DNA of 35,376 nucleotides from a virus (lineage: Duplodnaviria > Heunggongvirae > Uroviricota > Caudoviricetes): the IMG/VR virus record IMGVR_UViG_2703718783_000008. The stretch is one strand, 5' to 3'. Position numbers: made by a program. Shown here one piece after another: positions 6,001 to 9,000 of this stretch. Within the stretch, counting starts at the first letter, position 1. Every line of letters starts with the position of its first letter.

Positions 6001-9000
6001 ATGGTTGAATTAATCATCAATACTCTCCTTTTGGTTTGAAGGTTTATTGTTCATTTCCGGTCCTTAACTTTGCTGTATCGTTCATGGCTCATTACTTCCC
6101 AGTTCTGGCCGCCGTCTCGGGACAGCAGCCGCCAGCGGCGATTAACCCTCAGACTCAGGTTTCCGGAGCCGTGCATACGACAGGGATGAATTCGTCTGGC
6201 TCTGAACTGGCGGAGAACACGGACCGCCTGCAGGTGCACCCACTCAGGAATTCGTATTGCTGTTAATGTCACCGATTTCCTCCAGATCAGGAGCGATTAC
6301 CTGATATCCCGCTTTCTTTGCTATCCATAAGAAGGTATCCATGCTGGCAATCATCTCGTTATTGTGAACTTTACGGGTATTTATTACCTGACCATTTTCA
6401 ATCGTCATAATGATCTGTACTTTTTCGTGTATAAGAGGGGATAAATCAGACATCAGTTAATTCCTCCACTGATATATTTCTCTTTTACGTAGTCAACAAC
6501 CTCTTTTAAAAGGCCGTCCACTATCAGTTTCCCTGATTCAGTGAGATATTCCGTGTGTTGATTAATACCGATGGCATTCTGGTATGCGGTACGGATTGTT
6601 GCTTCTCCTTTCGTCCGTCCATATTCAACACGGGTAAGACCCTCAAATCGTAATAACAACTGGTTCATGAACTGTTCAGTTATTTCTATCGTTGTTATTT
6701 CTCCGTCCGGGAGGTCAACGACGAGCAGATTACTACCTGTTTTACGTTGCATCCGCCGGAGTGCCGCTGTTACCATGCGGCGACGATCTTTATAAATGGT
6801 TGTACATGCCATTTGTTATTTCCCGTATGCTTTTCTGAGAAACAGTATTGCAACTGACCAGTATCCTGCATTAGCCATTAATAATGCGGTTTTATAAGCG
6901 TTTCTATTTTTCATGCATCACCATTATTTTCTGGTTGTGGAAATCCACGACCAGAGGCCGTCATGTTTTTATGTGTGATTTTTTACTGAGTGTTCTTTAT
7001 TCGTTGCGTAGTGTTTCTATATACTCGTAAGCCATTTCACAGGTCTTATTCATGGAGCGAATGAGACAGCATAAATAATCGTCTGTCTCTCCTTGGTCGG
7101 GCGAATTCTTAAATATAAATTCAAGCATTGATGTATTCTCTTTTATTTGTGCCGCCACTTCCTCAAGAATATTTAATGGAGTTATCATGTTCTTTGCTCC
7201 TTAAATGCATCGCATGCGCTTCTGGCGTATTGTTGTGCCAGTAAAAAGATATCATCCGAAAGTTCATCACATTCTTCATCACCGGAAGCCGAAATGATTA
7301 ACCCCGCTTCAAGCAGTACGGCAATGTGATGAAAAGCTGTCTCCGGTTCGTTGGTAAGGCCTTTGAACATTTTCATCTTATGCTTCCTCCTGATTTTGTT
7401 TATAAGCATCAGTCAATAACAACATTGGATCACAGCCAAGAACATTAGCCAGAGGGATAAGCATGCTGATGGTTGGTTCGTACTCTCCGCTTTCCCACTG
7501 GATGATAATTTCTTCATCGAGATCGAGCAGCCTGGCGAGTTCGGCGGTTGTTAAGCCGCAGGCTTCGCGTTGGGTGCGGATTTTATTTGGTTGTTTGTTG
7601 ATTATGTGATTATGTAATGGATAAGTAGCAGACAGGGCGTATTCATGAACAAACTCCATGACTTCAAACCCCAATTCTTTAGAGCGATCACCATCAATTA
7701 AATGGAAAGTACGAGCAGCACCTACCAGATTTGCAATATTTAATGCAAAGGATTCTTTTTCGAAGTGGTTTAAGTTCGATATCTCAGCGGTTGTCAGATC
7801 TTTCATTGAATCACCATCAATTTAAAATTAACAATAAATCAAGTTAAAATTGATGGTGTGATGTTAGATCTTGATTGATGGAGTTGTCAAGAAAAAATTG
7901 ATTTCTGCGTCTCTTTTACTTGATTTGTAAATTTTTCTTTAATAATCAATAATTAACCAAATCTATTTATATTGAATGGAACAGATGAGATTACCTTCGA
8001 TTGGATATAAAGCAGCTCAAGAGCATCTTTTTCAATGCTCCAGGATTGGTAATTTGGGTTATCAGATAACACCATGATTTTACTTCCTATCTTTTGTAAT
8101 CTTTTGACGTAGCATTCACCATCAAAGCAAAAAGCATAAATGCCATCACCATCAAAGTAATTCACTGTTTTATCGAGAAAAAGAAGATCTCCTGGGGCTA
8201 TTGTTGGAGCCATACTATCTCCTCTTGCGTTACCAATCTCTATGTTTTGAAATGCTCTATTGCCAACAAGGCGACGGGCATATTCAGGATCAAGCTCGAT
8301 TGAGCGAACTACATCGATAAAGTCCCCACGGACATGTGTTCCATCGCCGCAACTAAACTCAACATCGAGCACGTTAAAGACCACACTGTCAGTTCTTGCT
8401 TGATGTTTTTCCTTTGAAGAGAACTGCCGTGACGTGATTTCTCCTAAAAACCACGATTGCGGATAACCACTTATTTCGGATAACTGGGCAAGCCGGTTTC
8501 CCCTTGGAAATGTTTTTCCTGTTGTCCAGTACTGTACGGACTGTGCGCTGACACCTAATTTTCGGGCCAGCTCTGCTTGGCTCCAGCCTTTCTCCTGTAG
8601 CAGCTTTGTAATTCGATTTTCAGTGCTCTTTAAGTTTTTCATTGTTAATCCTTGCTGGTTACTTGGTTTCGATAAATTTTTACTTGATTTTAGTGTATTC
8701 GATCTTTTGTGGACTTGCATGTTAATTTAAACTTGATGTAATCTTGAATTTATAAAGTTTAGATTGGTGGGTTGCGATGAAAGGAAATGATTACGACGCA
8801 CTTCGTGAGCTAATTGCACAAAATGCCATAGCGCGAAATCTAGGCGTTACGCCGCAAGCTGTGAACCAATGGTTTTCAAAAAGAACAATTCCTGCTCGTT
8901 TCGTCTTGCGTGTATGTGAAGTTGTGGAATGGAAAGTTACTCCTCATGGGTTAAGACCAGATCTTTATCCCCATCCTGAAGATGCAATTCCTGATTTGTT

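Follow-up and report, generated by a model that had tools for sequence, protein, structure and literature searches.

A cI-adjacent cassette of Escherichia phage phi467 joins an XRE-type regulator to two small proteins homologous to regulator hairpin domains

In two described systems a small protein controls a transcriptional regulator by resembling part of it: SinI mimics the oligomerisation domain of SinR, and the phage antirepressor AimX likewise mimics that of AimC (bioRxiv 10.1101/2025.11.23.689978). Here we analyze a locus that recalls these systems, found in a 35,376-nucleotide stretch of DNA from a virus of the class Caudoviricetes (IMG/VR record IMGVR_UViG_2703718783_000008; hereafter, the window). 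Directly left of a cI-type repressor gene, the minus strand of the window encodes a 142-amino-acid protein with a helix-turn-helix (HTH) domain of the XRE type (gene 1, the regulator), followed by two small acidic proteins (genes 2 and 3). This cassette is a real, conserved, and uncharacterized early module of phiP27-like lambdoid prophages, including several Shiga toxin (Stx) phages. What appears to be new, from structure prediction and profile comparison, is that the N-terminal domain of the regulator is a predicted helical hairpin and that the two small proteins are domain-only homologues of hairpins of this kind.

Across positions 6800-8000, the window is 99.9% identical over its full length to Escherichia phage phi467 (LN997803.1), which has been covered in papers on Stx-converting phages, Stx2f strains included. 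The phi467 record labels the 142-amino-acid gene “transcriptional repressor DicA”, both small genes “hypothetical protein”, and the gene to the right of the cassette “putative HTH-type transcriptional regulator”. Searching the literature for phi467 and for the phiP27 relatives L10 and L08 by name and accession, we found no functional work; PMC8044961 concerns the replication modules of Stx phages rather than the present genes. For the PHROG families of the three proteins (4836, 4587, and 6882), the annotation is either blank as to function or a “CII-like” label that lacks support; the mini-proteins have no matches in Pfam, NCBIfam, or PADLOC. A sequence-only reading of this stretch had called the content of the cassette unrecognized, and it is; profile searches with the three proteins returned HTH_3 and PHROG families, with no characterized function for any of them.

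The regulator gene (7378-7806, minus strand) belongs to the phiP27 L10 family, phrog_4836. Its C-terminal portion is an XRE-type HTH domain (residues ~74-131; 7414-7587) in which Pfam HTH_3 (PF01381) covers residues 76-127 with an E value of 3.5e-11 and 43.4 bits, against a cut-off of 23. AlphaFold2, which we applied to single chains and, for the regulator, with 35 homologues, predicts five helices at residues 75-131; the score above the curated cut-off and the five-helix fold together place the domain in the XRE/Cro-CI HTH superfamily. The top Foldseek matches of the HTH are the N-terminal domains of P22 C2, CapH, C.AhdI, and SinR (target TM-score 0.8-0.87), and the closest solved fold is that of P22 C2. 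Preceding the HTH is a region for which we found no Pfam match (residues 1-72), and a Foldseek search of the whole regulator against the PDB returned matches to the HTH half only. In the AlphaFold2 model this region forms antiparallel helices at residues 6-36 and 40-68 (predicted local distance difference test [pLDDT] ~87 in the core), followed by a disordered linker (62-73) and the XRE domain; we refer to residues ~6-68 (7603-7791, minus strand) as the hairpin domain. The sequence-only reading was therefore accurate in describing a 142-amino-acid protein with a C-terminal XRE HTH behind an unannotated N-terminal domain.

Two familiar identities were considered for the regulator and rejected. 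A lambda CII assignment, suggested by the PHROG label “CII-like regulator”, is contradicted by the absence of any CII family among the Pfam and NCBIfam matches and by the location of the gene, left of cI in the leftward operon where a CII gene would be expected right of cro; both this label and the “DicA” of the phi467 record derive from the generic HTH only. An N-type antiterminator like that of lambda, small, basic, and equipped with an arginine-rich RNA-binding motif, does not fit either, since the protein is acidic (isoelectric point [pI] 4.69; 23 acidic residues against 11 basic ones) and contains no arginine-rich stretch.

Genes 2 and 3 are coupled to the regulator gene and to each other: gene 2 begins with an ATG one base beyond the TAA of the regulator, and the end of gene 2 shares the sequence ATGA with the start of gene 3. 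Gene 2 (7185-7376, minus strand) encodes a hairpin-only protein of phrog_4587 (E 4e-34). Its longest open reading frame (ORF) spans 7185-7409 and would give 74 amino acids, with its first in-frame ATG inside gene 1. The ATG at 7376, which yields 63 amino acids instead of 74, is most likely the true start because an AGGAGG lies 9 nucleotides upstream, the homologue P0121 was called at 63 amino acids, and the resulting N terminus, MKMFKGL, has the MKxFKGL form typical of the family. Gene 3 (6997-7188, minus strand; phrog_6882) encodes a second hairpin-only protein of 63 amino acids, and both mini-proteins are acidic (pI 4.45 and 4.31). Of the earlier description of two coupled acidic proteins of 74 and 63 amino acids, the coupling, the acidity, and the length of gene 3 were borne out, while the length given for gene 2 was not. 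AlphaFold2 models gene 3 as a bare hairpin with helices at residues 4-28 and 34-62 (pLDDT 93). Foldseek returned only generic helical hairpins for it (E > 0.1), so that no family can be assigned at the level of fold; every one of its nearest PDB matches belongs to a multi-chain entry. In some E. coli genomes we also observed a chimera with the start of gene 3 and the end of gene 2 (P0131, 39 amino acids) or frameshifted variants of gene 2 (P0127-P0130), which shows that deletion and decay affect the small-gene pair in some lineages.

The relationship between the mini-proteins and the regulator is visible with profiles only; BLASTP of the 142-amino-acid protein against gene 2 gave no match. To compare the domains, we clustered the N-terminal regions of 106 homologous regulators at an E value of 1e-8 and aligned the clusters with hhalign, after discarding a single-linkage clustering at 1e-3 that lumped everything together. 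The N-terminal domains fall into several barely alignable types, that of phi467 being type A. The first link between gene 2 and the regulator was phrog_4587, the family of gene 2, which the regulator N-domain matches at residues 16-61 (E 3e-7). Aligned by hhalign, the gene 2 family matches the cluster of type B/C N-domains along its whole length (61 columns, probability 96%, E 5.5e-9). The gene 3 family profile matches the N-domain of another regulator, P0088 (E 1.5e-8), P0088 in turn matches phrog_6882 (E 1e-12), and the gene 3 family also clusters by BLAST with the P0088 N-domain. Also within phrog_4587 are a 66-amino-acid protein encoded next after the regulator in phages of the Stx1 and Stx2a groups, phiP27 L08 over its C-terminal half, and P0092 over its N-domain. 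A MAFFT alignment of the hairpins is gapless over ~55 columns, with the phi467 regulator N-domain aligning without gaps to gene 2 and to other N-domains, and gives the consensus G-L-x5-(D)SFA-x-NI-x2-LL-x-A ... ELG-x3-L-x-FA-x2-YA-x2-AA. These comparisons show, or at least strongly indicate, that genes 2 and 3 are stand-alone homologues of the N-terminal hairpin domains of regulators in this family.

The hairpin family is small. When we searched its profile against 1.84 billion representative proteins, only 51 clusters were found at E values up to 1e-3. The clusters that we inspected contained stand-alone proteins of ~60-90 amino acids, proteins with an N-terminal hairpin and one to three XRE HTH domains, or L08-like proteins of ~121 amino acids with the hairpin at the C terminus, and among them no other domain was fused to the hairpin. 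Stand-alone hairpins account for most of the clusters, across five genera, and named members of the family come from Escherichia, Salmonella, Klebsiella, Enterobacter, and Pantoea. The gene order recurs. Among 80 IMG/VR loci found with the regulator, 76 have a hairpin-only or hairpin-containing ORF downstream of it on the same strand (in 13 the pair of genes 2 and 3, in 24 a ~66-amino-acid protein, and in 39 an L08-like protein), and a cI-type gene stands in front of the regulator in all 79 loci with upstream DNA. By megablast, the conserved HTH segment is present in 372 of 5,426 complete E. coli genomes (~7%). Conservation of the pairing between regulator and hairpin protein in related prophages is thus demonstrated or, at the least, strongly indicated.

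We next consider how the cassette is likely to be controlled. The cI-type gene (7953-8642, minus strand) lies directly to its right on the same strand and encodes 229 amino acids from the most likely start, MKNLKST, within a longest ORF that extends to 8720. Its product matches Pfam Peptidase_S24 (E 9e-17) and HTH_3 (E 7e-9) and is 88% identical to the annotated cI of phages Stx2_EH2246 and PhiR49_2. Divergent from it is a gene in the Cro position (8777-9049, plus strand) for a 90-amino-acid protein with a YdaS/Cro-like HTH (Pfam YdaS_toxin, E 6e-13; P22_Cro, E 7e-5). The cassette is therefore immediately left of a classical cI-cro immunity region, and the sequence-only reading had correctly placed it next to cI, a position at the start of the leftward operon. 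Between cI and the regulator gene is a 146-bp spacer with 25% G+C (7807-7952, minus strand), which contains a promoter-like site and three operator-like sites and which we take as the control region of leftward operator (OL) and leftward promoter (pL).

Within this spacer is the perfect 12-bp inverted repeat that the sequence-only reading had reported, CACCATCAATTT at 7812-7823 and AAATTGATGGTG at 7847-7858 (7812-7858 overall). The repeat extends to 18-nucleotide arms with 89% complementarity (7812-7829 and 7841-7858), and a perfect repeat of at least 12 bp occurs in 0.7% of dinucleotide shuffles of the spacer (p ~0.007). Each arm is the outer half of a 17-bp unit, ATCAA-N7-TTGAT, and two adjacent units form the repeat. 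The right arm is supplied by ATCAAGTTAAAATTGAT (7838-7854), the only perfect ATCAA-N7-TTGAT in the 35-kb window, and the left arm by ATCAATTTAAAATTAAC (7816-7832), which has two mismatches and an equivalent in PhiR49_2. A third site in the spacer, GTCAAGAAAAAATTGAT (7886-7902), has one mismatch, and three more sites with the same motif, taken as the rightward operator, are found in the cI-cro spacer at 8672-8688, 8721-8737, and 8752-8768. Counting sites with up to 2 mismatches, we find 6 in the two spacers (280 bp in total), three in each, where 0.7 are expected from composition-matched shuffles (p ~2e-4). Because the motif was derived in part from the left spacer, the independent test is the cI-cro spacer alone, in which 3 sites are present and 0.13 expected. 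Genome-wide the motif is not enriched (25 matches versus 21.8 expected), and its significance lies only in its local clustering in the two spacers.

The operator-like sites are arranged around a candidate pL promoter of the sigma-70 type on the minus strand (7861-7890), composed of TTGACA (7890-7885), an 18-nucleotide spacer, and TAACAT (7866-7861), with 10 of 12 consensus matches. Its -35 element is kept at the same place in PhiR49_2 and Stx2_EH2246, which have a better -10. Site 7886-7902 covers the -35, while the perfect site at 7838-7854 lies just downstream of the -10 and, judging from promoter geometry, probably covers the transcription start. This is the layout of a lambdoid OL, where a pseudo-palindromic motif is repeated across the leftward promoter and found again between cI and cro.

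Comparison among phages points to the same assignment. Spacer motifs differ among the five immunity types that we examined, and for the three examined in detail (type 1, phiP27/Stx1_499, and L080) the OL and cI-cro spacers of a given type share one motif. Phages with a type 1 cI, Stx2_EH2246 and PhiR49_2, keep CACCATCAAT as well as CACCATCAATT and ATCAA-N7-TTGAT sites. In phiP27 and Stx1_499, whose cI is unrelated, both spacers contain GGTATCA/TGATACC motifs; ASU11 differs again in its spacer sequences; and both spacers of the IMG/VR locus L080, with a cI only ~40% identical, contain ATCGG-N4-CCGAT. The regulator HTH meanwhile remains 83-98% identical across immunity types, and L080 has an HTH 98% identical to that of phi467 along with the same genes 2 and 3. 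Indeed, loci L080-L086 (positions ~2085-3750) combine the ~40%-identical cI, which has its own terminator, and a different regulator N-domain type with the same regulator C terminus as phi467 and the same or nearly the same genes 2 and 3, placing the mosaic junction at the boundary between hairpin and HTH. Across phages, then, the motif changes with the type of repressor, as lambdoid operators do.

Since the spacer motifs follow cI and not the cassette, the established lambdoid arrangement would make them the OL operators and pL. Based on these comparisons, the repeat is most likely a part of the OL/pL control region of the cI repressor and not a private operator of the cassette, as the sequence-only reading had supposed; it consists of two of the six ATCAA-N7-TTGAT sites, whose motifs vary with cI type. 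We infer binding of cI to these sites from their layout and their co-variation with the repressor. With operators covering the leftward promoter, the three genes would probably be silent, or expressed at a low level, in the lysogen and would fire upon induction or infection. These observations strongly indicate that the cassette opens the leftward early operon, closest to its promoter, in the slot that gene N occupies in lambda. An intrinsic terminator directly follows cI in PhiR49_2 and L080 (compared at L004 3298-3444 and L080 2810-2880). We found none between cI and the cassette in phi467 (7807-7952), so that cI transcripts may read into the cassette in the lysogen.

The two domains of the regulator have evolved at very different rates. 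Between immunity groups, the HTH has a nonsynonymous divergence (dN) of 0.02-0.09 and a synonymous divergence (dS) of 1.2-2.1, which is saturated, for a ratio of 0.02-0.09 and hence very strong purifying selection. The hairpin changes ~10 times faster in amino acid terms (dN 0.25-0.43, ratio ~0.12-0.28 between diverged alleles). Given this difference, whatever the HTH contacts must itself be conserved across immunity groups. The HTH is among the most constrained sequences of the region though strongly acidic, which is unusual for a DNA-binding domain.

To account for these features, we propose, tentatively and with a little less than even confidence, that the cassette is a cI-repressed early operon for an XRE-type regulator and SinI-like modulators made of its N-terminal domain type only. 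When cI leaves OL, pL would fire, and one message would give rise to the regulator and the two hairpin proteins by coupled translation. An isolated two-helix hairpin of such length normally buries its hydrophobic face against another hairpin. Because isolated hairpins normally pair in this way and the PDB matches of gene 3 come from multi-chain entries, the hairpin is most simply read as the dimerization element of the regulator; it would serve as the self-association domain and form a four-helix bundle when the regulator dimerizes. The hairpin-only proteins could then enter mixed bundles with the regulator, or with its counterpart from another prophage in the same cell, and these mixed bundles would limit or time regulator activity. 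Plant microProteins poison transcription factor dimers in a comparable manner. Regulators that act as dimers are classically antagonized by paralogues of a single domain, as SinR is by SinI and the phage repressor AimC by AimX, and the antagonist mechanism is inferred here by analogy. Of the earlier suggestion of an anti-repressor-like module, no more holds than a broad resemblance of the mini-proteins to domain-only antagonists.

Several observations weigh against this proposal. Gene 2 is only weakly similar to the N-domain of phi467 itself (hhalign E 0.085, 21-23% identity), and for gene 3 neither hhalign nor the MAFFT alignment detects any similarity to it. A strictly cognate pair should co-vary, and hairpin-only genes combine freely with regulator N-types. 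For example, the gene 2 and gene 3 pair follows type A regulators (phi467) as well as type B regulators (L080-L086), and the hairpin behind the type D regulator of phiP27 is type-A-like. Furthermore, DNA binding by the 142-amino-acid regulator is an assumption. The HTH domain is unusually acidic (pI 4.15; 13 acidic and 5 basic residues; net charge about -8), and its recognition helix, DEEIIIQWE, starts with Asp-Glu-Glu where the HMMER alignment places Ser-Asn-Val in P22 C2, so DNA binding is not assured. A 12-mer search of six phage loci of ~7 kb found no conserved noncoding DNA target, only coding conservation and chance matches.

Some of these same observations would be explained if the hairpin instead bound a third party, be it a host protein or the cognate cI or Cro. 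In that case the regulator would work as an adaptor or antirepressor, and the mini-proteins would be trans-acting antirepressors or decoys, possibly directed at other prophages; the hypervariable hairpin would recognize an immunity-specific partner while the “HTH”, acidic and invariant, would bind a conserved factor. The regulator N-domain type tracks the cI type in every combination seen (N-domain A is paired with type 1 cI, B with the 40%-identical cI, C with that of ASU11, and D with that of phiP27/Stx1_499), whereas the hairpin-only proteins do not track the regulator N-type. An acidic HTH with an atypical recognition helix that is nonetheless under extreme constraint also fits a docking role, and small antirepressors of such size exist in Gifsy prophages (cited in PMC8044961) and in Bacillus and Vibrio phages. 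We nevertheless consider this alternative unlikely. The association between N-domain and cI may reflect function, or it may reflect only the 146 bp that separate them and thus plain linkage within the immunity module. The cI protein has an S24 self-cleavage domain and would not need an antirepressor. Finally, distant members of the regulator family have ordinary-looking recognition helices (e.g., VTAQAVYLWES and GMSQPAIFKL), which fit a family of DNA-binding proteins.

The rapid divergence of the hairpin could also be read as an identity tag, through which the early regulator of each prophage pairs only with itself, with the hairpin-only proteins acting as trans-acting decoys that bind the regulators or repressors of other prophages. 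We regard this version as quite unlikely. If it were true, the cassette would mediate cross-talk, or sabotage, where Stx and non-Stx prophages share a host, with consequences for which of them is induced and so for the amount of Shiga toxin.

A different kind of alternative concerns the inverted repeat, which might act mainly as RNA by forming a 5' leader hairpin that hides the ribosome-binding site of the regulator, for instance to silence read-through from cI in the lysogen. Such a function would be compatible with an operator role. As RNA, the repeat has a folding energy of -17.3 kcal/mol (z -3.4), which none of 200 shuffles equals; its 3' arm ends in the GGTG of a GGTGA ribosome-binding site, 5 nucleotides before the regulator ATG; and the read-through to be silenced is plausible in phi467, which, unlike PhiR49_2 and L080, lacks a terminator after cI. 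However, PhiR49_2 and Stx2_EH2246 show one-arm mismatches or an insertion with no compensatory changes, and an operator half-site, present in the cI-cro spacer too, already accounts for each arm. Promoter geometry further suggests that the pL transcript would start inside the 5' arm, and a search of Rfam found no family match except a spurious one to a microRNA. A primarily RNA-level role is accordingly, in our estimation, very unlikely.

The sequence-only reading had also raised the possibility of a superinfection-exclusion or toxin-antitoxin module, and more generally the cassette could be a defense cassette expressed from the prophage. Lambda rexAB and HK022 nun occupy positions next to cI, which the position of the cassette resembles, and an HTH protein with small partners loosely recalls a type II toxin-antitoxin system. 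On examination, this idea fares poorly and seems to us highly improbable. Operators and a promoter stand between cI and the cassette, as expected of a repressed early operon and not of genes on the cI transcript. The only PADLOC matches are generic HTH matches of the regulator (RmrA and CapH). The mini-proteins, acidic helical hairpins with homology to a domain of regulators, are neither enzymes nor membrane proteins. The one specific lead, a weak match of the regulator to MqsA_antitoxin (E 0.047), scores 14.2 bits against a cut-off of 30 and falls mostly on the HTH; there is no CxxC zinc motif and no cysteine in residues 1-72, and we rejected this assignment. Hardly credible, lastly, is the notion that the small ORFs are nonfunctional remnants of regulator 5' ends left by mosaic recombination: they do resemble regulator N termini, MKxFKGL start included, and chimeric or truncated forms exist in nature (P0131, P0127-P0130), but a ribosome-binding site of their own and coupled starts are present, the dN/dS of gene 3 (~0.1 between more diverged alleles) marks it as a real coding gene, stand-alone forms predominate in the family across five genera, and the downstream hairpin ORF is present in 76 of 80 loci.

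Other genes of the window lie farther left. The same leftward operon includes an ORF6N/Ant-type antirepressor homologue of 248 amino acids (4681-5427, minus strand; phrog_1726, E 9e-70; Pfam ORF6N), the C-terminal part of which shares DNA blocks with Roi/Ant genes located right of cro in related phages. It also includes a 193-amino-acid protein of the phiP27 L06 family (5439-6020, minus strand; phrog_1515, E 9e-89), for which we found no Pfam, NCBIfam, or credible PADLOC match and which is a leftward-operon gene in all 6 phages compared. In the 184-bp gap after gene 3 is an unannotated 32-amino-acid ORF (6816-6914, minus strand) with a hydrophobic core, MKNRNAYKTALLMANAGYWSVAILFLRKAYGK; its product could be a small membrane peptide. 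The 3' end of this ORF, AAAGCATACGGGA, is found again at the corresponding position in phiP27, Stx2_EH2246, PhiR49_2, and Stx1_499, and a coding sequence of 37 amino acids is annotated there in PhiR49_2 and Stx1_499. At the left end of the window, two minus-strand ORFs (10-1236, 408 amino acids; 1563-2762, 399 amino acids) look by eye like tyrosine integrases. The second overlaps a coding sequence annotated as XerC in the phi467 record, and the first may come from neighboring DNA rather than from the phage. No tRNA gene was found in window positions 1-4000.

The cassette stands first in the early operon of a group of E. coli prophages that includes Stx1, Stx2a, Stx2d, Stx2e, and Stx2f converting phages. 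As these phages have no recognizable N gene, their first early proteins bear on how induction, and with it toxin release, proceeds. Once the mini-proteins are viewed as paralogues of the regulator N terminus alone, three “hypothetical proteins” become the subject of a concrete and testable regulator-antagonist hypothesis, through which small-protein control of the SinI/AimX type would gain an example from an enterobacterial phage. Annotation of these phages also benefits when the palindrome is assigned to cI and not to the cassette. As far as sequence analysis can tell, the palindrome appears ordinary, being most likely the operators of cI, and the regulator with its domain-only paralogues would represent a new variant of a known regulatory logic.

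Comparison with the closest known systems makes clear where this locus resembles them and where it departs. Like SinR/SinI of Bacillus subtilis and AimC/AimX, the cassette places an XRE HTH regulator with a helical domain beside small helical proteins that would mimic such a domain. The logic of those systems is dominant-negative antagonism by heteromer formation, and for the cassette a heteromer would have to be supposed. The helical domain is C-terminal in SinR, whereas the hairpin is N-terminal here; beyond the generic HTH, SinI and SinR have no detectable sequence similarity to the cassette proteins; and the cassette has two mini-proteins of different hairpin types that are not obviously matched to the adjacent regulator. 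With no Pfam match for the mini-proteins or the N-domain and with the domain order reversed, we rejected membership of the SinR/SinI family and consider the cassette an analogue. The type II antitoxins MqsA and HigA2, which have a C-terminal HTH, share the layout of a partner-binding N-terminal region followed by an XRE HTH, but the phi467 regulator has no zinc ribbon and no toxin gene, and its putative partners are paralogues of the N-domain itself.

The control region is closest to OL/pL of lambda, in which repeated 17-bp pseudo-palindromic operators likewise lie over a leftward promoter beside cI and recur in the cI-cro spacer. In phi467, two of the operators are downstream of the -10, in the leader, and no rex-like gene lies between cI and the operators; rexAB of lambda is in the cI transcript, whereas the phi467 cassette is behind the operators. 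The cassette has the same first position in the leftward operon as lambda gene N, with no N homologue present and an acidic first product. The direct homologues of the cassette are the phiP27 genes for L10 (the regulator) and L08 (with its C-terminal hairpin) and the families PHROG 4836, 4739, 4587, 5451, and 6882, and genes of the L10/L08 type occupy the same cI-adjacent position in Stx1, Stx2a, Stx2d, and Stx2e phages.

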